Part shown: piece by piece, positions 1-12,249 of the stretch
Layout of the letters: every line of letters starts with the position of its first letter
How positions within the stretch are numbered: position 1 is the first letter of the stretch
Source of the DNA: a virus
Lineage: Duplodnaviria; Heunggongvirae; Uroviricota; Caudoviricetes
IMG/VR virus record: IMGVR_UViG_2737471839_000006
Location: 1-12,249 of that record
Direction: 5' to 3' (one strand)
Length of the DNA stretch: 12,249 nucleotides
Made by a program: the position numbers and the translations under genes
Notes under the pieces: model-generated
The model's database searches: none
The model's input: only the letters and a program-made list of their open reading frames with translations
What the model was told of the DNA's origin: nothing

Positions 1-109
1 CACCACCCCGTCAGTAGCTGAACAGGAGGGACAGCTGATAGAAACAGAAGCCACTGGAGCACCTCAAAAACACCATCATACACTAAATCAGTAAGTTGGC
101 AGCATCACC
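1..109 (-). mobile_element. IS1 terminal segment, including the terminal inverted repeat; the element continues beyond the window start and includes the first codons of insA on the minus strand
   Basis: Positions 1..109 are the exact reverse complement of the IS1 left end as I recall it (GGTGATGCTGCCAACTTACTGATTTAGTGTATGATGG...GACGGGGTGGTG). The terminal repeat ends at 109 (..CAGCATCACC), where the sequence turns abruptly AT-rich. Recognised from memory, not searched. Confidence 0.85.
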
Positions 110-337
110 CGGGGAACTATAACAATGTTTCTAGCTTGGTGCTGTATGAATTAGTGAATTAGTAGGGAATATATCCACACATTGATTAACACAAAAATAT
201 TTCAGATATTAAATGTAACTCAAAGGATGAGTAATAATGGTTGTGTAGCGTATAACAGGATGCTGAGGTAGTATTAAACAATGAATAAATCTGATTGACA
301 AGCACCAGATAATACTGCGGGTCAATCATTAGACATG

Positions 338-372
338 AACGCCACTAGTTACTGAGAGTAACTAATGGCGTT
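338..372. repeat. Near-perfect 16-bp inverted repeat (AACGCCACTAGTTACT-gag-AGTAACTAATGGCGTT, 15/16), a possible 3' stem-loop or protein-binding site downstream of the HD gene
   Basis: Read directly; one C/A mismatch. It sits 43-77 bp downstream of the minus-strand stop at 415..417. A second AT-rich hairpin (GATGTTTT-ttt-AAAACATC, 387..405) lies between the stop and this palindrome. Confidence 0.4.
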
Positions 373-414
373 GTGTTTATAGTTAAGATGTTTTTTTAAA
401 ACATCAGGGGGGCT

Positions 415-1962
415 CTACTTGTCTTTTTTAATATGTTCAATCTCATCATTAAGACATTTATCTATTTTTTTTATTAACACATTAATTTCTTCGGTGTTTT
501 GGAGTTGAGTTGTCTTAGAAACAAAAACTCGAATAAAGAATTTAACATAGTGATAGGGTTGAAGTACATCGTTATACTTACATAAATCATTTATTGTATA
601 CTTGCCGCCTGTTTCTTTTTTTATTATTTTAGCTTGACTTGTATCGATATCTTTAAAGTTATCTTCAATCTGAAAATCAAGAACCCATTCATCTCCTTTT
701 AAATTATCCTCAATGATTTTGTTGATTTTCTTAGATATATTTTGTTTATATTCTTTGTATCTGTTGTCGGAAATGTTAACATTAGAAAACGTGTGTTTTT
801 TTTCATATATTTTTTTCCAAACATTTCTATCAACAATATCTTGAATTATAGCTTGAGAATTTTTATCTAATGTGTTTTTAAGAGTGTTTTCTAAAAACGT
901 TTTGTCTGGGTTTTCACGATAAAAGTGTTTGATGGACTCAATGAGAGTGTTTTTAGATTTTAAAGAGACAACATCATCAGTTTTTTTTCTAGAACACGCT
1001 TTGTTAAGCATCGCAGATAGTGCACGATTGGTCTTATGAAAATAAACTTGACTATAAAGCCCACTTCTTGCATTGGCAAATTCTAGTATTGAATCCATAC
1101 CACTTTCTTTATATGCCAGGTAAACACTATTTTCAACTTTCACAGGAATAAATGACATTAATAATCGTCCATAATCATAAATCCCATATTTAACGCCGGA
1201 GAAGTAGCTATCTCTAAGTAGGTAGTCCATTCTGTCCGCATCTATAGGTGAAGATGATATGATTGAACCTAATAAAGGATATACATTTACTCCCTCAATG
1301 TTATTTTTAAAATCATATCTTTTATCAACAATTTTTATAATGCTTTCTGGATTAATAGCCGCTATGTTTTCTTTATAGACATCGTCGTCATTTGATTTAT
1401 CTTGGGCTTCATTTTTTAATTCTTCAATAATTTCTTTAATAAAAATACATGATACTTGTTCGTGGGTTAACTTGTCATTATCACTTAAAGATATAATCTT
1501 ATCGTATTGTTTATTTCCTTCAGTTTTGCATTTTTCTTTGAAATCTTTTACGGATATTGCAAAACTATCGAATTGGTGGGCAAGTGGGCCATGCCCAACA
1601 TCGTGTAACAATGCTGCAATACGTAACTCCTGTATAAGACTTGAAGGCATTTTTTTTATATCTAAATATAGATCAATGCCCATATTTTTTCGGTCATAAA
1701 TTAATGCATTCAAATTTATATTTTTCAAAATCTCATACGATAAATGCATTACACCGACAGAGTGTTCAAAGCGAGAGTGCATTGCAGAAGGAAATACTTT
1801 ATATAGAAACGTGTTCTGCCTGATATCTCGTAGTCGTTGGAATAAAGGATGGTCAATTATCTTTTTTTCTAGCTTAGTTATTCGAATCACTCCATGTATG
1901 GGATCTAAAAACTTCCCCAGAAGTAAGTCTTCAAAGTTCTCAAGTTTGTTTTTGTTTGTCAT
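415..1962 (-). CDS. SAMHD1-like HD-domain dNTP triphosphohydrolase (515 aa)
   Basis: Uninterrupted 515-aa ORF with ATG start at 1962..1960 preceded by AAGGAAAG. HD-superfamily motifs are all present: DPIHG (aa 21-24), RFEHS (aa 64-68), LLHDVGHGPLAH (aa 118-129), THEQ (aa 166-169), DADRMDYLLRD (aa 241-251). Spacing and flanking residues parallel human SAMHD1 as I recall it. Very AT-rich with K/N/I-rich codon usage, unlike the flanking prophage genes. Confidence 0.85.
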   Translation of the reverse strand: MTNKNKLENFEDLLLGKFLDPIHGVIRITKLEKKIIDHPLFQRLRDIRQNTFLYKVFPSAMHSRFEHSVGVMHLSYEILKNINLNALIYDRKNMGIDLYLDIKKMPSSLIQELRIAALLHDVGHGPLAHQFDSFAISVKDFKEKCKTEGNKQYDKIISLSDNDKLTHEQVSCIFIKEIIEELKNEAQDKSNDDDVYKENIAAINPESIIKIVDKRYDFKNNIEGVNVYPLLGSIISSSPIDADRMDYLLRDSYFSGVKYGIYDYGRLLMSFIPVKVENSVYLAYKESGMDSILEFANARSGLYSQVYFHKTNRALSAMLNKACSRKKTDDVVSLKSKNTLIESIKHFYRENPDKTFLENTLKNTLDKNSQAIIQDIVDRNVWKKIYEKKHTFSNVNISDNRYKEYKQNISKKINKIIEDNLKGDEWVLDFQIEDNFKDIDTSQAKIIKKETGGKYTINDLCKYNDVLQPYHYVKFFIRVFVSKTTQLQNTEEINVLIKKIDKCLNDEIEHIKKDK

Positions 1963-2023
1963 GAGGCTTTCCTTTTGCTGTAGTTATAATACGAAATTTA
2001 AATAGTAATGATGTTTATAGTTT

Positions 2024-2052
2024 CAATGTGTTATCTAATGGTTAACACATTG
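2024..2052. promoter_or_regulatory. Perfect 10-bp inverted repeat CAATGTGTTA-N9-TAACACATTG, a putative operator or promoter element 62-90 bp upstream of the HD gene start
   Basis: Read directly. On the minus strand the right arm ends in TTGAAA, which could serve as a -35 element. The 10-mer TTCAATGTGT (2022..2031) recurs at 3873..3882 upstream of the second island gene. Confidence 0.45.
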
Positions 2053-2321
2053 TGATGTAGCATATCAATATGGATTCATATGTTCAATTGGTCTGTGGAG
2101 TTTAGTTATGAATAAGATTGATTCTGGTAATACTTTGTAGTTTAAGCTAGAGGCGGGATTCGTGATGTTCAAATCAGTATGTAATGGAGGTTGTGCATTA
2201 GTACTTGCTGCTGGAAATTAAAAATAAAGTTGCAAGTAATCGACGTTTTCCGAGAGGAGGATGTAAGCATCGCTGACCAAAAAGTATCAACGATGCCTGT
2301 TTTGTTTTAACTACAAATTAA

Positions 2322-3824
2322 TTAAATTGCATCTGCAAACTCTGTGATTTTTCGCTCAAGTATGATTGATGAGTTGCTGTTGTCGATTTTTTTATTTTCA
2401 TGATTACGAATAGCCAATGACTCATTAAAGTCTTTTGCGACTGCTGTCTCAATAAATTCAATTTCTGAATCAGAGTGTTTTTTAACAGCTTCTTTGATCT
2501 CATCCAGAGTAACATAGAAAAACTCTTTTCTACGATTTACAAGATTGACTCTCTTTTTATCGAAGACATCATGTAGTTTTTTTTCTAATGATGGAGCGTC
2601 CTCCGAATAAATCATGGCATGCACATCAAAAATAAAAGGAACAGATGCATCACCAAGCTCATTTACACGGTCTTGTGGATCAAGACGTCGTGTCATGCCT
2701 ATTTTATAAACATTCTCCCCAAAAGAACCTATGTTCGAAATAATATAAACATGACCTTGTTTGGTTTGTTGTGCCATGGATAATGCTCTTTGATGCTTTG
2801 ATTCAGCCTGCGACAAACTCTGTTCTAGTTCGGCAATGCGATTTTCGAGGCGCTGCTTCATGTCACCAGTAACTTTTTCCATTTCCTTTCTTGCAGCTTC
2901 AATTGCTTTTTTATAACGGCGCTCTTCTGCCTCTGCGTCTTGCATGGCCTTTTCTATTTCTCGTTGTGCACGCTCCTCCTCTCTCATTTGTGCCCTTATT
3001 TCTGCCTGTTCTTCTTTTTCTTTCTGTTTTTGCTCACGATATTCATGGGTAAGCCACAACTCCTCAAGTTTTTTATTAAGGTATTTAGTATTTATATATA
3101 TGTGATTTTGCTCGTTTAGTTTATTTATGGCCTCAAATGCCTTTGTGATGCGTTCTTCCATTTTAGTGATATTTTTCCACGTGCAATTACTAATTGCAGC
3201 ATCACATTCATTATTAAATGCTCTAGTAGTTAGCCTAATATTTCTGTCTGTCATTTTTTTACCCTCTGCTCGAGAGCCTTCAACAGTCCATTGGGTTGTG
3301 CAATATACTGCACCAGAGTGGGTTTTATCCCGCAGCATTAATTTCTGTTCATCCCTGATGGATTTTATTTTGTTTTTAAATTGCTCTGAATCTTCAAAAT
3401 TAAAATGAGGTTCGTAAAATCCTAGTTCGGCTAGTTCAACATCTTCTGAATAAATAGAAATTTGCTTTACTAGCTTATCATATATTTCTTTCTTCTCTTT
3501 ATAAGTTCTTCTTAGTTCTTGGATTTGTTTATTGATACCATCCATTTTTTCAATGGTGTTTGTTAGTTCATTATTGGCATTTTCTTTTACTTTTTGGGAC
3601 TCTTCTTTTATAATGGAGCATTCTTGCTCTGTTTTCTCAATAAGCTTCTTACATTCCTCTTCCACATTAAAATAATCTGCAAAGCGAGATTTGTATTCTT
3701 CATTTTTTTGATTGCTATCACTTAATTCTAATTGTATTTTTTTGATGCGTTTGATTGCAGCTATATATAGAACAAGAACAACCAATAAAAATATGATTGC
3801 AAGTAATAGTGGAGTTTGAGTCAT
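2322..3824 (-). CDS. Membrane-anchored coiled-coil protein with C-terminal T5orf172/MUG113-type (GIY-YIG superfamily) domain; middle region resembles DUF4041 (500 aa)
   Basis: 500-aa ORF with ATG at 3824..3822 and GGAA upstream. N-terminal hydrophobic helix (LLLAIIFLLVVLVLYIAAI, aa 5-24). Long E/K/Q/R-rich heptad-like segments (aa ~30-130 and ~250-350). C-terminal block GHVYIISNIGSFGENVYKIGMTRR...PFIFDVHAMIYSEDAPSLEKKLHDVFDKKRV...RKEFFYV (aa ~357-440; nt ~2505..2756) matches the T5orf172 signature as I recall it. AT-rich like the HD gene. Confidence 0.85.
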   Translation of the reverse strand: MTQTPLLLAIIFLLVVLVLYIAAIKRIKKIQLELSDSNQKNEEYKSRFADYFNVEEECKKLIEKTEQECSIIKEESQKVKENANNELTNTIEKMDGINKQIQELRRTYKEKKEIYDKLVKQISIYSEDVELAELGFYEPHFNFEDSEQFKNKIKSIRDEQKLMLRDKTHSGAVYCTTQWTVEGSRAEGKKMTDRNIRLTTRAFNNECDAAISNCTWKNITKMEERITKAFEAINKLNEQNHIYINTKYLNKKLEELWLTHEYREQKQKEKEEQAEIRAQMREEERAQREIEKAMQDAEAEERRYKKAIEAARKEMEKVTGDMKQRLENRIAELEQSLSQAESKHQRALSMAQQTKQGHVYIISNIGSFGENVYKIGMTRRLDPQDRVNELGDASVPFIFDVHAMIYSEDAPSLEKKLHDVFDKKRVNLVNRRKEFFYVTLDEIKEAVKKHSDSEIEFIETAVAKDFNESLAIRNHENKKIDNSNSSIILERKITEFADAI

Positions 3825-3872
3825 TCGTGCTATTCCTTACGGACAATTTAAGACGTTTTGTATTAAATCCTG

Positions 3873-3882
3873 TTCAATGTGT
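3873..3882. promoter_or_regulatory. Second copy of the 10-mer TTCAATGTGT, 49-58 bp upstream of the start of the 500-aa gene
   Basis: Read directly; identical to 2022..2031. On the minus strand it reads ACACATTGAAC, again ending in a -35-like TTGAAC. Confidence 0.35.
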
Positions 3883-4152
3883 ATGCGGGTGATTGCTACC
3901 GCTTACAATCTTCATAATTATCAGTTAGATAGACTCGCTAGTAAATAATTTCATTTTTTGCAATATTCTTATTGAATATTTCAATTTATGAAATGAACTC
4001 TTTATCCTTTCAAGGCGAAAGGTTTCTTCTTCGGAAATATTTGCTCTCGTGTGACGTATAAAGGCCTTTGATTTTTAAAAAACAGTAGGGAATAATATAG
4101 TTACTGTCGGCCTGAACACCCGGCGGTGGGGTTGCGCTAAACGGGGACGTTT

Positions 4153-4254
4153 ATGCGCACATACAATCTAAACTCTCTTCTCCCTTCACAGATGCAGAAA
4201 TGCACCTGCGATTTTTTGCATCCAACGTTTGACCTCTGCGGAGGTGAAGCGTGA
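4153..4254 (+). CDS. ylcH: Small 33-aa ORF, YlcH-like, overlapping the ybcN start by 4 nt
   Basis: ATG at 4153 translates to [33 protein letters not shown] and stops within GTGA, which also supplies the ybcN start. Size and position match my recollection of ylcH in DLP12. Too short for the ORF track; hand-translated. Confidence 0.4.
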
Positions 4255-4706
4255 ACCTACCACAAGATGGCATCAAATTACATCGCGGCAACTTCACCGC
4301 TATCGGCCAGCAGATCCAGCCTTATCTGGAGGACGGAAAATGCTTTCGCATGGTGCTTAAACCGTGGCGTGAGAAACGCAGTCTTTCCCAGAATGCACTC
4401 AGCCACATGTGGTACAGCGAAATCAGTGAATACCTTATCAGCAGGGGGAAATCGTTCGCTACCGCAGCATGGGTAAAAGAAGCTCTCAAACACACATACC
4501 TCGGTTATGAAACCAAAGAACTGGTTGATGTCGTAACCGGTGAAATCACCACTATCCAGTCGTTACGCCATACCTCCGATCTTGATGCCGGAGAGATGTA
4601 TGTCTTCCTGTGTAAGGTTGAAGCCTGGGCGATGAATATTGGCTGCCACCTGACTATTCCGCAGAGCTGCGAGTTCCAGCTGCTGCGCGACAAGCAGGAG
4701 GCGTAA
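4251..4706 (+). CDS. ybcN: NinB-family protein (YbcN-like), 151 aa, GTG start
   Basis: ORF track 4251..4706. GGAGGTG sits 5 nt upstream of the GTG. The sequence [19 protein letters not shown]...[18 protein letters not shown] matches the DLP12 YbcN/NinB family as I recall it (lambda NinB has the analogous RSLDQN block). Confidence 0.9.
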
Positions 4707-4876
4707 TGGCTACACCGCTTATTCGTGTCATGAACGGACACATCTACAGAGTACCAAATCGTCGTAAGCGTAAACCTGAGCTGAAGCCATCCGAAATACC
4801 AACACTGCTCGGATATACCGCCAGCCTGGTTGATAAAAAATGGTTGCGACTGGCAGCAAGGAGGAATCATGGCTGA
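4706..4876 (+). CDS. ninE: NinE-family small protein (56 aa)
   Basis: ATG overlaps the ybcN stop (TAATG). Hand translation gives [56 protein letters not shown]. Below the ORF-track size cutoff. Confidence 0.7.
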   Translation: MATPLIRVMNGHIYRVPNRRKRKPELKPSEIPTLLGYTASLVDKKWLRLAARRNHG

Positions 4877-5159
4877 TTTGAGAAAAGCAGCGCGTGGTCG
4901 GGAATGCCAGGTAAGAATCCCTGGCGTATGTAATGGCAACCCTGAAACGTCTGTACTGGCACATATCCGGCTGACTGGATTGTGCGGCACCGGTACCAAA
5001 CCGCCAGACCTGATTGCCACCATTGCATGTTCTGCCTGCCACGACGAAATCGACCGCCGCACACATTTTGTCGATGCCGCATATGCAAAAGAATGCGCGC
5101 TGGAAGGTATGGCGAGAACGCAGGTTATCTGGCTGAAAGAGGGGGTAATCAAGGCGTGA
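4869..5159 (+). CDS. ybcO: YbcO-like putative nuclease (Cys-rich, 96 aa from ATG at 4869)
   Basis: Track ORF 4830..5159 begins at a TTG; the ATG at 4869 is preceded by AGGAGGAA and gives 96 aa ([23 protein letters not shown]...), the size I recall for DLP12 YbcO. Conserved Cys/His residues (C..C..C..H) are present. Confidence 0.75.
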
Positions 5160-5518
5160 ATACCTACAACATCACATTACCCTGGCCGCCTAGCAATAAC
5201 CGCTACTACCGGCATAATCGCGGGCGCACACACATCAGCGCAGAAGGGCAGGCATACCGCGATAACGTCGCCCGAATCATTAAAAACGCAATGCTGGATA
5301 TCGGCCTGGCTATTCCTGTAAAAATCCGCATTGAGTGCCACATGCCGGATCGCCGTCGCCGTGACCTGGATAATCTGCAAAAAGCCGCTTTTGACGCACT
5401 CACCAAAGCAGGTTTCTGGCTGGATGATGTTCAGGTCGTTGATTACCGTGTTGTGAAGATGCCCGTTACCAAAGGTGGGAAGCTGGAGTTGACCATCACC
5501 GAACTGGGGAATGAATGA
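5156..5518 (+). CDS. rusA: RusA Holliday-junction resolvase (120 aa, GTG start overlapping the ybcO stop)
   Basis: Track ORF 4982..5518 is a 5'-extended frame; GTG at 5156 (within GCGTGAAT) gives [23 protein letters not shown]...[25 protein letters not shown], which I recognise as RusA. Confidence 0.9.
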
Positions 5519-5655
5519 TGTTTGAGTCTTATATGGCAGAACGTCTTCGCCACCGCTGGATGCGCCTGCGCTTATATCGTTTCCCCGGTTCTGTTTTGAC
5601 CGATTACCGAATACTGAAGAGTTACGCCAAAACCCTGACAGGAGCAGGAGTATGA
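5515..5655 (+). CDS. ylcG: YlcG-like small protein (46 aa)
   Basis: ATGATG start overlaps the rusA stop (AATGAATGATG). Hand translation gives [46 protein letters not shown]. Below the track cutoff. Confidence 0.55.
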
Positions 5656-5740
5656 AGTCAGAGATAACAACCAACTAATACTGTTTTGTTGATTTTTGCT
5701 TGTAATTGGCGTTCTGGTCTGAGTTTTGTGGAGTAAGTTG

Positions 5741-6124
5741 ATGCGTGATATTCAGATGGTTCTTGAGCGTTGGGGAGCGTGGGCGGCTAATAATCATGAA
5801 GATGTGACCTGGTCGTCCATTGCCGCCGGTTTTAAGGGATTAATTACTTCAAAAGTAAAATCTCGCCCGCAATGTTGTGACGATGACGCGATGATCATTT
5901 GCGGGTGCATGGCCCGTCTGAAAAAGAACAACAGCGATTTGCACGATTTATTAGTAGATTATTATGTAGTCGGTATGACATTCATGTCACTGGCAGGTAA
6001 GCATTGCTGCTCTGATGGTTATATCGGGAAAAGGTTACAGAAGGCTGAGGGCATAATTGAAGGGATGTTAATGGCATTAGATATCCGGTTAGAGATGGAT
6101 ATCGTTGTTAATAACTCTAATTAA
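5741..6124 (+). CDS. quuD: Late-gene antiterminator Q (QuuD-like, 127 aa)
   Basis: Track ORF 5726..6124 starts at an upstream TTG; the ATG at 5741 gives 127 aa ([24 protein letters not shown]...) with Cys clusters ([18 protein letters not shown]) typical of Q-family antiterminators. Position after rusA/ylcG and before the lysis genes is as expected. Confidence 0.85.
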
Positions 6125-6157
6125 TATGCCAATTGTTTACTAAAAATTATTAAAAAT

Positions 6158-6175
6158 GGGGCGTTGAGACGCCCC
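6158..6175 (-). terminator. GC hairpin (GGGGCGT-tgag-ACGCCCC) followed on the minus strand by ATTTTTAATAATTTTT; candidate intrinsic terminator for minus-strand (nmpC) transcription
   Basis: Read directly. The T-rich tract is only on the minus-strand 3' side, 34 nt beyond the quuD stop. Confidence 0.4.
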
Positions 6176-6265
6176 CAAAAATAAAGGGTAATATATAACA
6201 GAAGGTTTATATAGTTAGAAGCAAGGTTGTGCTTCTAAAGGAAGTGGCTTGAGGGAGCCACTTAT

Positions 6266-6304
6266 ATGTTGGGGAGGCAACGCCTCCCGCAACATATCTT
6301 TTTC
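6266..6304 (+). terminator. tR'-like intrinsic terminator candidate (GGGAGGC-aac-GCCTCCC within an extended imperfect stem, then ATCTTTTTCG)
   Basis: Read directly. Lies about 140 nt downstream of quuD, where lambdoid phages place pR'/qut/tR'. Two further hairpins (6218..6237, 6244..6261) sit just upstream. Confidence 0.4.
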
Positions 6305-6313
6305 GTAATCAGA

Positions 6314-7411
6314 TTAGAACTGGTAAACCAGACCTACAGCAACGATGTCATCAGTGCTTACACCGAGTGCTTTAGTGAAGTCATTTTTGTCAAGCAGGTT
6401 GATTTTGTAATCAACGAAAGTAGACATATTTTTGTTGAAGTAATAGGTTGCACCTACATCAACATATTTGACTAAGTCCTGATCGCCCCATACTCCAAGA
6501 TCCTTACCTTTAGATTGCAGGTAAGCAACGGACGGACGCAGACCGAAATCGAACTGATATTGTGCAACAGCTTCGAAGTTTTGGGCTTTATTAGCAACGA
6601 AGTGATCAGCAAATACAGTCATATTCTGGGTTTCAGAATAGGTAGTGGCCAGGTAAATGTTGTTAGCATCATATTTCAGACCTGCGGCCCAAACTTCTGC
6701 ATTTTTACCGGAAGCAAATACTTCAGGAAGAACTTTCCCTGCATTAACTTGAGTGTCGGTACGATCAGATTTCGCATAAGTTGCACCGATACCGAATCCT
6801 TCGTATTCATAGGTAGCAGAGAAACCGAAGCCATCACCGTTACCTTCAGTGTAGTTATCGAAATCGCTACGATCGTTTTTGCCTTGGTACTGAGCAGCAA
6901 AGTTCAGACCATCAACCAGACCAAAGAAGTCGTTGTTACGATAGGTTGCAACACCAGTGGTGCGACCAGTCATGAACACATCTGTTTGGGTCCAGGTATC
7001 GCCACCGAATTCTGGCAGAACGTCAGTCCACGCACCGATGTCGTATGCTACACCGTAGTTACGGCCGTAATCGATTGAGCCGTAGTCACCGAATTTCAGG
7101 CCTGCAAATGCAAGACGGGTTTTGTCTTTGGAGGAACCTTGAGATTCAGCGCGGTTGCCTTTGAATTCATATTCCCACTGACCGAAACCAGTCAGTTGAT
7201 CGTTGATTTGGGTTTCACCTTTGAAGCCAAGACGGGCATAAGTAGTATCACCATCATCTGCATCATTAGAGGAGAAGTAGTGCTTAGCATTAACTTTCCC
7301 GTACAGATCCAGCTTGTTACTGTCTTTATTATAAATTTCAGCTGCCTGAGCAGACATCGCCATCAGTACTGATGCAGCTACAGCAGAAATTGCCACTGTT
7401 AATTTTTTCAT
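6314..7411 (-). CDS. nmpC: Outer-membrane general porin NmpC/OmpD-like, intact (365 aa with signal peptide)
   Basis: ORF track. N-terminal signal peptide [23 protein letters not shown] then AEIYNKD...; C-terminal ...AVGLVYQF, the typical porin terminal Phe. ATG is preceded by AAGGG. Recognised as the DLP12 porin gene, here without an IS interruption. Confidence 0.9.
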
Positions 7412-7840
7412 CGTGAGCCCTTTTTTTTGAACTATTATTAAAAAATGATGTCACTGCGCGATAAATATTCATCTAATCAATGTGATTATTTCAAGATGTA
7501 AGTTTTGGTTTCTCGTTTGATTTGTGAAGTAGATCTCTATTTTTATCTGAACTTTTTTCTATCGAATCCTATTCATAGCTCTTGGCTGAATAAAAATAAA
7601 TCTATTAGCCAATTTATATTAACGACTGTTATTTATAAGTGCTCTATAATTTGAAGGTTCAATTTAAATCGGCTAAAAATAACACTGGAAATTATTTGTT
7701 GGTTATTTGTTGAGGTTTTCTTATGTATTTGTGGTGGTGTTTTGAACACTCGGTAGCATTCTCGCAAATATCATTTAGTGGTTTACGTACGTAAAAAATT
7801 GGTTATGCTGTTAAGAGTGGTTACTTCGTCACACAGCTTA

Positions 7841-7873
7841 AACCCGCCGTCGAGCGGGTTTTTCCATTTTTTG
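7841..7873 (+). terminator. Intrinsic terminator candidate about 110 bp upstream of the holin gene (AACCCGC-cgtcga-GCGGGTT then TTTCCATTTTTTG)
   Basis: Read directly; the T-tract is on the plus strand only. Confidence 0.55.
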
Positions 7874-7984
7874 AGTCTCGATATTAGCTGATAACCCAAT
7901 ACCTGAGTTATTCACTGACTCCGAGTCTGTTACGTTTCGTAGTATTCCCTCAATTTACACCCGCTTTGTCTGCGAGGTGGGGTT

Positions 7985-8200
7985 ATGAAATCCATGGATA
8001 AGTTAACAACGGGTGTCGCCTATGGCACCTCAGCAGGTAGTGCCGGGTACTGGTTTTTACAGCTGCTAGATAAAGTCACGCCCTCACAGTGGGCGGCAAT
8101 TGGAGTGCTGGGTAGCCTGGTATTTGGCCTGCTGACGTACCTGACAAACCTTTATTTCAAGATTAAAGAAGACAAGCGTAAGGCTGCACGGGGAGAGTAA
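7985..8200 (+). CDS. essD: Class II pinholin, phage 21 S21-like (71 aa) with dual-start motif MKSM
   Basis: ORF track. [71 protein letters not shown] is near-identical to S21 as I recall it; two TM segments; Met1/Met4 dual start. Confidence 0.9.
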
Positions 8201-8204
8201 TTCA

Positions 8205-8549
8205 ATGACTCAAAACTATGAACTGATTGTGAAAGGGATCCGCAATTTTGAGAATAAAGTTACGGTAACTTTAGCGTTACGGGACAAAAAACGCTTTGAC
8301 GGTGAAATTTTTGACCTGGACATCTCGCTGGACCGTGTTGAAGGTGCCGCGCTGGAGTTTTATGAGGCAGCAGCCAGAAGGAGCATCAGACAGGTCTTCC
8401 TGGATGTTGCTGCCGGGTTATGTGAAGGGGATGAGCTGTCGCCGGAAAAGCGCCCCATAATTTTAGAGGCGCAGAATGTGTGGATAACCTACAAAGGAAA
8501 GCTACCGGGAAGAATTACTGGTTCTCTGAAGACTCCGCCGAAATGGTAA
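8205..8549 (+). CDS. Hypothetical protein (114 aa) inserted between holin and endolysin; no family recognised
   Basis: ORF track. ATG at 8205 lies 5 nt after the holin stop, with GGAGAG 7 nt upstream, so it is positioned for co-expression with late genes. No motif I can assign. Confidence 0.6.
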   Translation: MTQNYELIVKGIRNFENKVTVTLALRDKKRFDGEIFDLDISLDRVEGAALEFYEAAARRSIRQVFLDVAAGLCEGDELSPEKRPIILEAQNVWITYKGKLPGRITGSLKTPPKW

Positions 8550-8787
8550 TTTCACCAGCATATTTTTCTTCCAGTAATACCGCCAGCCACTTGAAAGAAT
8601 TTTGTTGTTGCTGGGACCATTTGGGGTTGAGTGATTCAAGCTGGAGCGATGCCAGTGTTGGTTGCATTTGTTCCTTGGGAATTGAGAATGCCAGATATGA
8701 AAATGCGACAGTAAGGGCATTTACATCATCCCGAAGCCTGGAAATGCAGTCGAGCAACTCCTGTAGAGAAATGGTGCTATTGTCCAT
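8515..8787 (-). CDS. Hypothetical protein (~90 aa), convergent with and overlapping the 3' end of the 8205..8549 gene
   Basis: Track ORF 8515..8793 starts at a TTG; the in-frame ATG at 8787 is preceded by GAGAGGA at 6-nt spacing on the minus strand. Ordinary Leu/Gln-rich composition; no recognisable family. Confidence 0.5.
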   Translation of the reverse strand: MDNSTISLQELLDCISRLRDDVNALTVAFSYLAFSIPKEQMQPTLASLQLESLNPKWSQQQQNSFKWLAVLLEEKYAGEITISAESSENQ

Positions 8788-8892
8788 AAACAATCCTCTC
8801 TATTGTATTTAACTATTCCTTGCCTGATTCAACAGGCCGGGACAGATAAACATATCCAGGGTTCAGAAACCGATAAATCCTGATAAATATCC

Positions 8893-9426
8893 ATGAACGC
8901 AAAAATCAGATACGGCCTGTCGGCTGCCGTTCTGGCACTGATTGCCGTCGGTGCGCCTGCGCCTGATATTCTCGACCAGTTTCTGGATGAAAAAGAAGGT
9001 AACCACACAACGGCATACCGCGATGGTTCCGGCATCTGGACCATCTGTCGGGGTGCCACGGTGGTGGATGGAAAACCCGTTTTTCCCGGTATGAAACTGT
9101 CGAAGGAAAAATGCGACCAGGTTAACGCCATTGAACGGGATAAGGCGCTGGCATGGGTGGAGCGCAATATTAAAGTGCCACTGACCGAACCACAGAAAGC
9201 GGGTATCGCGTCATTTTGTCCCTATAACATTGGCCCCGGTAAGTGTTTCCCGTCGACGTTTTATAAGCGGCTGAATGCCGGTGATCGTAAAGGTGCATGC
9301 GAGGCGATTCGCTGGTGGATAAAAGATGGTGGGCGCGATTGCCGCATACGTTCAAATAACTGCTATGGACAGGTTATTCGTCGTGACCAGGAAAGCGCAT
9401 TAGCCTGTTGGGGGATAGATCAGTGA
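8893..9426 (+). CDS. SAR endolysin (T4-lysozyme-like muramidase, 177 aa)
   Basis: ORF track. N-terminal weakly hydrophobic Gly/Ala-rich segment ([17 protein letters not shown]), typical of a signal-anchor-release domain. The following E-x8-D-x5-T triad ([16 protein letters not shown]) has T4-lysozyme spacing. Confidence 0.9.
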
Positions 9427-9881
9427 GCAGAGTCGCCGCGATTATTTATGCTCTGGTTATCTGCATCATCGTCTGCCTGTCATGGGCTGTTAATCATTAC
9501 CGTGATAACGCAATCGCCTACAAAGAGCAGCGCGATAACAAGGCCAGTGAACTGGAGAAGGCGAACGCCACCATCGCTGACATGCGGAAGCGTCAACGTG
9601 ATGTAGCAGAACTCGACGCAAGATACACAAAGGAGCTTGCTGATGCTAACGCGACTATCGAAAGTCTCCGTGCTGATGTTTCTGCTGGGCGTAAGCGCCT
9701 GCAAGTCGCCGCCACCTGTGCAAAGTCAACGACCGGAGCCAGCGGCATGGGCGATGGAGAAAGCCCAGGACTTACAGCAGATGCTGAACTCAATTATTAC
9801 CGTCTCCGAAGTGGAATCGACAAGATAACCGCGCAGGTTAACTACCTGCAGGAATACATCAGGACGCAATGCCTGAAATAA
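9423..9881 (+). CDS. Rz: i-spanin Rz (GTG start overlapping the endolysin stop)
   Basis: Track ORF 9408..9881; GTG at 9423 (within CAGTGAGC) gives (M)[33 protein letters not shown]..., closely resembling lambda Rz: N-terminal TM anchor, coiled-coil periplasmic domain. Confidence 0.85.
9637..9828 (+). CDS. Rz1: o-spanin Rz1 lipoprotein, embedded in the +1 frame of Rz
   Basis: Track ORF 9637..9828. Lipobox-like VSAC followed by a proline-rich stretch ([13 protein letters not shown]), entirely inside Rz in another frame as in lambda. Confidence 0.75.
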
Positions 9882-9912
9882 TTTTTTTGCAAATCACAAA
9901 GTCCATTTAATG

Positions 9913-9936
9913 AGCCTCGCGATGCGGGGCTTTTTG
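9913..9936 (+). terminator. Intrinsic terminator after the lysis cassette (AGCCTCGC-gat-GCGGGGCT with one G-U pair, then TTTTT)
   Basis: Read directly, about 30 nt downstream of the Rz stop. Confidence 0.5.
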
Positions 9937-9942
9937 CAATAA

Positions 9943-9967
9943 ATGCGTACCGCAACGCATGTTTTTT
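9943..9967 (+). terminator. Second tandem intrinsic terminator (ATGCGT-accgca-ACGCAT then GTTTTTT)
   Basis: Read directly, immediately after the first. Confidence 0.45.
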
Positions 9968-10082
9968 ACACCGAACCTGCCCCTTTGGAATGGGCCTTTG
10001 AGGATACCAGTTAGTGCTGGCGAGCCTCGGTGGGCTGGTTTCCTGTGCGGCAAAGGTTCATTTCAAAGAGTAGGTACACGCT

Positions 10083-10580
10083 ATGAAATCATTAACCCTC
10101 TTCAATCAACCAATTCGTATCGGTGAAGATGGCATGATCTGCCTCACTGACATGTGGAAAGCTAGTGGTAAAAGTGAATCTGAATCGCCGTACCACTATC
10201 TGCGAAACAAGCAGACCAAAGAGTTCTTAGCCGAGCTGGAGAAAAACCACGAATCTGTGGTTTTTACTGAGCGCGGTGTACACGGTGGAACATATGGCGG
10301 GAAGTTTGTTGCTTACGATTATGCGGCTTGGTTAAACCCCGGGTTCAAGTACGCGGCCTATAAAGTCCTCGATGACTACTTCACCGGAGAACTTCAGCAT
10401 CGCAACAGCTTAAGTGCGCAGCTCAACATGAAATGTCATGAGTTTGACCAGAAGAAAGACATGGCGAGCTTCTGCGGACAAGGGCTGGCAGCATGGCGCT
10501 ATACGAAGCCAGTGTTGGTCGCTGAGATTAACTCCCTGGCTAACCAGCTGCAGATTACGATCCCCGGGCTTCCGGGATGA
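10083..10580 (+). CDS. KilA-N domain protein (165 aa)
   Basis: ORF track. The N-terminal region (..FTERGVHGGTYGGKFVAYDYAAWLNPGFKYAAYKVLDDYF) has the aromatic/AxWLxPxF pattern I associate with KilA-N DNA-binding domains. Confidence 0.75.
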   Translation: MKSLTLFNQPIRIGEDGMICLTDMWKASGKSESESPYHYLRNKQTKEFLAELEKNHESVVFTERGVHGGTYGGKFVAYDYAAWLNPGFKYAAYKVLDDYFTGELQHRNSLSAQLNMKCHEFDQKKDMASFCGQGLAAWRYTKPVLVAEINSLANQLQITIPGLPG

Positions 10581-10852
10581 GTGATCGTGTCATTGAATGC
10601 GCCTCCAGAGCGGGGCGCGACTTCTCAGAGTTCATGAAAGGCGAGAAGGGCATGATGGAAGCATTGGCCTCGGTGGATGAGTTTGGCGAGCAGCTGCGCC
10701 TCAACGGCTGTGTCAATCATCACTTTGTTAGCTACATGATGCGGAACTCGATCATGCAGGCATTCATGGACATGGCAAAAGCCGAGAGGAAAGAAGAGCG
10801 CCGGCATAAGCGAGCGGAAGCAAAAGCAAAAGCAAAAGCAAAAGTGAAGTAG
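10577..10852 (+). CDS. Hypothetical protein (91 aa) with basic C-terminal (AK)n tail; start overlaps the KilA-N stop
   Basis: ORF track; ATGA overlap at 10577..10580 suggests translational coupling. Confidence 0.6.
   Translation: MSDRVIECASRAGRDFSEFMKGEKGMMEALASVDEFGEQLRLNGCVNHHFVSYMMRNSIMQAFMDMAKAERKEERRHKRAEAKAKAKAKVK
10820..10843 (+). repeat. (GCAAAA)x4 perfect tandem hexanucleotide repeat encoding AKAKAKAK
   Basis: Read directly, within the 3' end of the 10577..10852 ORF. Confidence 0.8.
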
Positions 10853-11334
10853 CCATTACAAAGCCCATTTACGGGTGGGCTTGATAATGAAACCGGAATT
10901 TATTCTGGGCCACCAGTTAACGGCAGTACCACGAAACAACCCAAGCCAGTAAGTGGGGAAATAACACTGGCAGCCACTGAAAGATGAAGCTCCTGCCTTA
11001 AGGCAAAAAAGATTCTTTGTGGTGGCGGACTGATGGAAAGACATCGGTTATTGCAGAGGCCATTCAATGAGTGGTCTCGACAATGGCTTATACCCTACAC
11101 GGGATAACTTAACTGATATCCCTTTTAACGGATAAAGGTATTCAAGCCTGACACATCATGCGCTGTATCGTCGCCGTATTCCCGCATTAACCATGACCGT
11201 AGCCCGACGGGGAATTCCTTCTGCGTGAGTGTGCGGGAATAATCAAAAACGATGCACACCGGGGTTACCGGGTACACATATTTCATCATGCCAGCGAGTC
11301 CGGTTCTGGCGCGGAAGAAACCGGACGTTATGAT

Positions 11335-11760
11335 TTAGTGCGGAAATATTTGTGTAGTGTTCTGAATGTTCTCAGTAAATAGTAATGAATTATCAAAGGT
11401 ATAGTAATACCTTTTGTTTTCGTGGATATTTGTAATCCATCTGAAAACCCCTGCTGTAGCAAGATTTTTCCTGTATTCGTAAAATGATAACTCTCCTGAT
11501 TTGAATCCTTTTAAGGTGGCTTCTATAAGGCATTTATTTTTTGAAAATCTTACATTTACAACCTTACCCTGTCCTTTTATTAAAACCGTATTATCGTTTT
11601 CAAGAACAAGATGAATATTCTCTGTGGCTAAATAGTAAATGTAATGTGAGACATTGTGACGTTTTAGTTCAGAATAAAACCAGTGATAGTTTAAATTATT
11701 TCGCACTTTATCGAATATTTGTTTAAAAATGGCAACCTGAGCCATTGTAGTACCTTCCAT
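11335..11760 (-). CDS. ybcV: YbcV-like protein (DUF1398 family); ATG at 11745 would give 136 aa
   Basis: ORF track; AT-rich. [43 protein letters not shown]... recalled as the DLP12 YbcV family. A GTCCGGTT..AACCGGAC hairpin lies just downstream (~11293..11321). Confidence 0.75.
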
Positions 11761-11802
11761 GTGATATGATGGGGCGTAGTCTGCACGATTATCTAAATTG
11801 CT

Positions 11803-12036
11803 TCAATCTGGTCTGACCTGTTTTCTGAGCAATTCAGTAATGTCACTCTTTTCTTTGTTTGCTTCAGGCGAAACTCTTTTTTCTGAGCACAGTCTCCGGC
11901 GGCAGGCTTCAATGACCCAGGCTGAGAAATTCCCAGACCCTTTTTGCTCAAGAGCGATGTTAATTTGTTCAATCATTTGGTTAGGAAAGCGGATGTTGCG
12001 GGTTGTTGTTCTGCGGGTTCTGTTCTTCGTTGACAT
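11803..12036 (-). CDS. Small basic protein, YlcI/DUF3950-like (77 aa as called; start uncertain)
   Basis: ORF track. MSTKNRTRRTTTRNIRFPNQMIEQINIALEQKGSGNFSAWVIEACRRRL... has an Arg-rich N-terminus and a ribbon-helix-helix-like core, and sits immediately upstream of cos as in DLP12/lambda. Confidence 0.6.
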   Translation of the reverse strand: MSTKNRTRRTTTRNIRFPNQMIEQINIALEQKGSGNFSAWVIEACRRRLCSEKRVSPEANKEKSDITELLRKQVRPD

Positions 12037-12149
12037 GAGGTTGTCCCGTATTCAGTGTCGCTGATTTGTATTGTCTGAAGTTGTTTTTACGTTAAGTTGA
12101 TGCAGATCAATTAATACGATACCTGCGTCATAATTGATTATTTGACGTG

Positions 12150-12249
12150 GTTTGATGGCCTCCACGCACGTTGTGATATGTAGATGATAATCATTATCAC
12201 TTTACGGGTCCTTTCCGGTTATCCGACAGGTTACGGGGCGGCGACCTCG
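12150..12249 (+). other. Lambda-type cos site: cosQ-like region and cosN, with the 12-nt cohesive-end sequence GGGCGGCGACCT at 12236..12247
   Basis: 12065..12235 matches the lambda right-end sequence as I recall it (...GACGTGGTTTGATGGCCTCCACGCACGTTGTGATATGTAGATGATAATCATTATCACTTTACGGGTCCTTTCCGG[T/G]ATCCGACAGGTTACG), followed by GGGCGGCGACCTCG. Confidence 0.8.

Follow-up and report, generated by a model that had tools for sequence, protein, structure and literature searches.

An insertion sequence that ends a prophage segment just where replication and immunity genes are expected raises the question of what it has done there: has it landed between two genes, or does it mark the joint of a larger rearrangement? 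We addressed this question for a 12,249-nt stretch of DNA (hereafter the window, meaning the whole stretch analysed), whose first 109 nt carry such an end and in which a preliminary description had seen a likely rearrangement of the prophage early region. The reading that we favour, with a probability of roughly 0.55, is a simple insertion of a 768-bp IS1 of the IS1A type, beyond which the early region would continue.

The IS1 end and its boundary

The features of the window, each with coordinates, strand and basis, are the following.

1–109, minus strand: left (IRL) end of IS1, element positions 1–109 (109/109 identity to the IS1A copy of E. coli TB354; InsA N-terminus; promoter-like site)
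About 87–109, minus strand: IRL within the IS1 end (match to the TB354 IRL)
54–1, minus strand: first 18 codons of insA (InsA N-terminus in the minus-strand frame)
110–118, no strand: nine bases, cggggaact, adjoining the IS1 tip (empty site in relatives; the expected target duplicate in the case of a simple insertion)
110–414, no strand: AT-rich spacer, 35% G+C, from the IS1 tip to the HD stop codon, with a strong hairpin (L002 and L003 gene tables; G+C by segment; folding)
415–1962, minus strand: HD-domain protein, 515 aa (Pfam HD, E = 8e-7; weak PADLOC dGTPase match; RefSeq 'HD domain-containing protein')
2322–3824, minus strand: SNIPE / PD-lambda-1 nuclease (DUF4041 + GIY-YIG/T5orf172), 500 aa (PADLOC PD-Lambda-1, E = 5e-198; Pfam)
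4251–12249, plus strand: lambdoid (DLP12-like) backbone with ybcN, ninE, ybcO, rusA, ylcG, Q (quuD type), porin (minus strand), holin, DUF1327, lysozyme, Rz, KilA-N, DUF1398, DUF3950 and cosN (Pfam; gene tables; identity to L003)
12236–12247: cosN, gggcggcgacct (read directly from the window sequence)

What lies at window 1–109 is the true left end of an ordinary IS1. The preliminary description had placed an IS1 terminus here, and the alignment bears it out: in blastn with the 768-bp copy of TB354 the identity is complete (E = 6e-59, far beyond chance), the tip of the element falls exactly on base 109, and relatives resume at base 110. The element is inverted, window 109 to 1 corresponding to its positions 1 to 109. 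The IS1 copies of L023 and L027 are also 100% identical to this stretch, and of the IS1 matches in E. coli genomes thousands bear the annotation IS1 family transposase. The minus-strand sequence of window 109–1 is GGTGATGCTGCCAACTTACTGATTTAGTG...GACGGGGTGGTG; it opens with the terminal GGTGATGCTGCC of the IRL (109–98), and the terminal inverted repeat of about 23 bp, starting GGTGATGCTGCCAACTTACTGAT, is exact at 109–87 and the same as the IRL of the TB354 copy, whose IRR is an imperfect inverted copy of it. The insA gene starts with GTG at 54–52 on the minus strand, and its first 18 codons, V-ASVSISCPSCSATDGVV, are followed by the start of the window, so that of the insA / insB' / −1 frameshift arrangement only these codons are in view. 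A promoter consensus scan returned a sigma-70-like site on the same strand (102 to 75), at the known location of the IS1 insA promoter. The window thus shares the IRL, the insA promoter region and the insA start with IS1 of the IS1A type of E. coli and Shigella, with zero differences over the 109 of 768 nt visible. The truncation at base 1 is owed to the window start, not to biology. No second IS1-like stretch was found by blastn with the TB354 element in the rest of the 12,249 nt, and an ORF scan of the window returned no ORF across the IS1/island junction.

Window 1–4300 is covered to at least 80% by 21 complete RefSeq E. coli genomes, and these were used to place the boundary. Eighteen of them align in one piece from exactly base 110 (the remaining three have IS1 elsewhere), and the 109/110 boundary is therefore real.

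The prophage segment, its relatives and the empty site

To judge from its gene content, the window is a segment of a DLP12-like lambdoid prophage: Pfam matches to NinB, NinE, RusA and antitermQ are present, and the nin region, Q, the holin-lysozyme-Rz block and a lambda-type cos stand in lambda order. Between this backbone and IS1 lies an island encoding the HD protein and SNIPE, with a G+C content of 30–39% as compared to 45–49% in the backbone. The SNIPE ORF is intact. Its PADLOC match spans residues 1–484 of the 500-aa protein, and Pfam finds DUF4041 together with T5orf172/MUG113, that is, the single-protein SNIPE architecture. SNIPE, the newer name of PD-lambda-1, denotes a nuclease that resides in the membrane and cleaves phage DNA as it is injected (PMC13190303). 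The 515-aa HD protein is always accompanied by SNIPE in the HD + SNIPE island; SNIPE also occurs without HD in some relatives, namely in genomes whose matches start at window 2263, and in L022. The dGTPase-like PADLOC match of the HD protein is weak (E = 9e-4), and its gene may serve defence on its own or in an accessory role.

An NCBI contig, JWZF01000014.1 (GCA_000819145.1; 12,180 nt; L017), was found by exact-protein look-up of a 91-aa ORF variant described below. Over window 577–12249 (11,673 nt) the two sequences are 100% identical, down to a shared last base. From its length, the contig is calculated to start at window 70 and would hence include 40 nt of IS1 as compared to 109 in the window, its leftmost 507 nt being unread. 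The contig is carried by three samples, and at least four similar places exist beyond those listed. It is almost certain that the window, too, is a complete short-read draft contig, from the same lineage, that broke at one end in a multi-copy repeat. Since the window ends inside IS1, the left flank and any target duplication fall outside the window. At the other end, the window stops 2 nt past the lambda-type cosN (gggcggcgacct|cg), and L017 (11660–11673) ends at the same base despite an IS1 end that is, by arithmetic, 69 nt shorter. This shared hard right end could be a repeat boundary common to another prophage, or could reflect an excess of ends from packaged linear phage DNA, in which case the prophage would be active. 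A sibling contig, L013, with one mismatch over 10.8 kb, extends past cos and includes a complete set of head and tail genes.

The preliminary description had proposed a comparison with related intact prophages. The nearest relative, L003 (CP057154.1), differs from window 110–11968 (11,859 nt) by one mismatch (7660) and one 6-bp indel (10818–10823), which amounts to 99.94% identity. It has no IS1, none being found within 10 kb to the left of the site, and a complete early region stands immediately to the left. All backbone ORFs of the window are intact as in L003. The indel is one GCAAAA repeat unit, and ORF 10577–10852 encodes 91 aa in the window and 89 aa in L003; the 91-aa form is common to several unrelated lambdoid and P22-like phages.

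The same arrangement is found more widely. In nine of the ten distinct contexts that carry an identical HD protein (L003 and L005–L012), and in TB354, the early region lies immediately to the left, in the leftward order ren-like, P, O, YdaT, YdaS/cro-like, S24 repressor, kil, gam, bet, exo; YdaT and YdaS occupy the cII/cro position. The expectation that replication and immunity genes belong at the position of IS1 was thus correct.

The remaining context, L004, differs, as does E. coli 2 HS-C (L001): both are remnants of the DLP12 type, located at argU, in which int, exo and a truncated bet are present. They share the nin-Q-porin-lysis backbone and the HD + SNIPE island of the window and are truly without an immunity and replication region. 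Comparison of the joint (L001 11730–11930 and L004 11942–12124, against L002 11653–11949) indicates that everything from gam through most of the ren-like gene has been lost, the truncated bet being fused to the last ~8 ren-like codons at 'tatatggg'. This joint is free of IS elements and lies about 76 nt to the left of the IS1 site; we considered whether the DLP12-type early-region loss and the IS1 could stem from the same event, and rejected this for these two reasons. The two remnants are 0.57% diverged from the window and, unlike it, have lost the late region past window 8049, where essD is fused in them to a tail-fibre fragment.

Other DLP12-type remnants hold IS1 copies without target duplication (L029 14206–14971; L023 13441–14206 and 8372–9138). 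At one of them, IS1 connects the porin region with an integrase fragment of 97 aa adjacent to fimZ, and in these strains it has clearly accompanied the deletion of the entire early and nin region. The L029 remnant (AP027424.1) has the same type of nin-Q-porin-lysis backbone as the window and shows that IS1 can form a deletion joint in prophages of this type.

In relatives that are free of IS1 the empty site reads ...tatatgggagattagttattacttgatttgatggttatctcgaaaacatccaatcaaatttaatggtttgctttgtg|cggggaact..., or, as also read, ...ggtttgctttgtg|cggggaact.... The stop codon of the ren-like gene (98 aa in TB354), which belongs to the rightward early operon, lies 51 nt to the left of the insertion site, and that of the HD gene 305 nt to the right; IS1 thus falls in the 356 nt that separate two convergent genes at their 3′ ends, leaving every ORF whole. 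The backbone homology of the island-less lambdoids L026 and L031 reaches 71 nt to the left of the site, and that of L022, with its SNIPE-only island, reaches 30 nt to the left. By these limits of homology, the AT-rich HD + SNIPE island begins 30–71 nt to the left of the IS1 site. The earlier statement that IS1 directly abuts the island was approximately right as to place, the true edge lying these few tens of nucleotides further to the left. IS1 prefers AT-rich targets, and its tip in the window is likewise within an AT-rich spacer.

The spacer contains a strong hairpin at 340–372, with a perfect stem of 15–16 bp (aacgccactagttac...gtaactaatggcgtt), 45 nt downstream of the HD stop codon. Its predicted stability on the two strands is −23.5 to −25.8 kcal/mol, with z scores of −5.7 and −6.9. 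On the HD strand it is not followed by a U-tract and is thus not a textbook intrinsic terminator; lying where the ren-like and HD genes converge, it may act as a bidirectional terminator or serve to stabilise RNA.

Simple insertion, rearrangement and lesser alternatives

According to the reading that we favour, a complete 768-bp IS1 would have moved into the 356 gene-free nucleotides that separate the ren-like gene from the HD gene, with duplication of 9 bp of target, and beyond it the genes for replication and immunity would follow; only 109 nt of the element would be visible as the short-read contig broke in a multi-copy repeat. The remainder of IS1 and the early region would then lie beyond the window start. 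Since L003 is only two differences away, free of IS1 and provided with a full early region, one insertion, with any IS1 copy as donor, is the shortest path to the window. Everything to the right of IS1 is intact, the sibling contig L013 carries full head and tail genes past cos, and simple IS1 insertions are known in the same type of prophage. In TB354 (NZ_AP038814.1), IS1 sits in the SNIPE gene with a 9-bp duplication, CTGTCTGTC, at the equivalent of window 3244–3252; the last 109 nt of that copy are the same as window 1–109, and it has entered the same island in the same orientation to it. It lies 3.1 kb further to the right and splits the SNIPE ORF, whereas the copy in the window interrupts none. 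In NMBU-W13E19, IS1 sits in the Q gene with an 8-bp duplication.

The main alternative, which we consider a serious possibility at clearly less than even odds, is an IS1-associated rearrangement, in which the far side of the element is something other than the prophage early region. It could have arisen by an adjacent deletion through intramolecular transposition, by deletion or inversion between two IS1 copies, or by a one-step attack from an IS1 already present on the left. IS1 promotes adjacent deletions. Several observations favour this alternative: related DLP12-type prophages hold IS1 copies without target duplication; the junction of porin region and integrase fragment at the IS1 of L029, found also in L023, is clearly deletion-associated; and other carriers of the island (L001 and L004) have lost the early region, though by way of an IS-free joint. 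Indeed, two independent complete IS1 copies with a target duplication stand against two without it (a small local sample from related prophages), and with two of four copies lacking the duplication the prior for a non-simple event is substantial; an IS1-rich source such as Shigella, if that were the origin, would raise it. On the other hand, a rearrangement requires two events or a pre-existing IS1 nearby, L003 has neither an IS1 near the site nor a damaged early region at a distance of 2 differences in 11.86 kb, the sequence to the right of IS1 is intact to cos, and positive evidence of deletion within the window is nil. The statement that a rearrangement of the early region is likely is accordingly unsupported: the window probably ends as a contig inside IS1, and its closest intact relative is free of the element. 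If a rearrangement had nevertheless taken place, the prophage would be without replication or immunity genes, or split, and cryptic.

The sequence collections were searched for the junction itself. Among 5,426 complete RefSeq E. coli genomes, no place covers at least 80% of a 141-nt query spanning it. The exact right junction is absent from the GTDB species representatives, the JGI metagenomes and IMG/VR, and the empty site from the GTDB representatives. For a simple insertion the predicted layout is a left flank ending ...gctttgtgcggggaact (also ...TTGCTTTGTGCGGGGAACT, ...AATGGTTTGCTTTGTGCGGGGAACT), the 768-bp IS1 and then cggggaact..., with the right end of IS1 at the left junction expected to read GGTAATGACTCC... 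/ GGTAATGACTCCAACTTATTG; this left junction, with a gap of 0–14 nt allowed, is absent from IMG/VR and the JGI metagenomes. No contig crossing IS1 and no partner contig was found among the 24 longest contigs of each exact-protein look-up (HD protein, 91-aa ORF and 54-aa ORF). The absence of the junction from all collections scanned, with the left flank outside the window, leaves room for a rearrangement; the breaking of contigs in the repeat likewise explains why the junction is missing from complete genomes.

Two further alternatives concern the 109 nt themselves. They might be a solitary, decayed fragment of IS1, as only this much is visible; with 100% identity to an active-type IS1A and zero decay, and with contigs of two assemblies that break off within IS1, one after 109 nt and the other, by arithmetic, after 40 nt, which is the behaviour of a multi-copy repeat, we hold this to be very unlikely. 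Least probable of all is an assembly chimera, with IS1 bases misjoined to the contig end and no IS1 at the site. Repeat contig ends are indeed where misjoins occur, but the independent contig L017 reaches 40 nt beyond window 110 by arithmetic (those 40 nt being unread), and the break at 109/110 coincides base for base with the IS1 tip, as in real transposition.

Neighbouring genes and IS traffic in the island

The HD gene lies on the minus strand and, as had been stated, is transcribed towards IS1. The accompanying suggestion that IS1 could influence its expression finds little ground: the element stands 305 nt past the HD stop codon and beyond the hairpin at 340–372, and the promoter side of the gene is 1.85 kb away. 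Given this distance and the intervening hairpin, HD expression should be unaffected, and judging from these positions an effect of IS1 on it is unlikely. Both HD and SNIPE would keep their own upstream regions, and the consequence to be expected is small. Read-through from HD would enter IS1 in the direction of insA. External read-through represses the activity of an IS1 end and leaves the neighbouring gene unaltered.

At most, a simple insertion could add some polarity to the early transcripts that run rightward into the nin genes and Q. Classical polar IS insertions occur in the early operons of phage lambda, where such polarity is expected to be relieved by phage antitermination, and there, too, the IS lies in the rightward early path between the replication genes and Q. 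The path predicted for the window differs from the classical case in that it already crosses the opposed island; in all relatives, early rightward transcription traverses 4 kb of oppositely transcribed DNA.

An outward-facing TTGGCA (96–101, within the IRL) is separated by 16 nt from a TATAAC in the flank (118–123) on the plus strand; the pair 96–123 is not among the sites listed by the promoter consensus scan. A weak hybrid promoter of IS1 and flank, antisense to HD, is a long shot. More generally, we regard as improbable a more than passive role of IS1, be it through such a promoter firing antisense into HD, or through the HD + SNIPE island being a recurrent, possibly selected IS target by which prophage defence is tuned or switched off.

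IS elements are found repeatedly in this neighbourhood (hits located in window 415–3824, L002 14428–16491, and L022 7792–10562 and 14747–15444). In Evo1 and CP137705, IS1 splits SNIPE at an apparently equivalent position to that in TB354, and NMBU-W13E19 has an IS5 between ren and a SNIPE-only island, besides the IS1 in Q. These repeated hits could reflect an AT-rich hot spot or selection against defence genes.

The IS1 event described here is of an ordinary, already known kind, with nothing new in kind. Should the early region have been deleted after all, the result would be a defective prophage carrying an intact HD + SNIPE island, a known pattern that can be compared with the DLP12-type remnants bearing the same island. 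Finding IS1 in the spacer of a lambdoid prophage is commonplace in E. coli and Shigella genomes, and matters little beyond book-keeping. The lesson of this locus is that an IS end at the edge of a window or contig can be, and usually is, a mere break in a repeat, and is no proof of a deletion beyond it.
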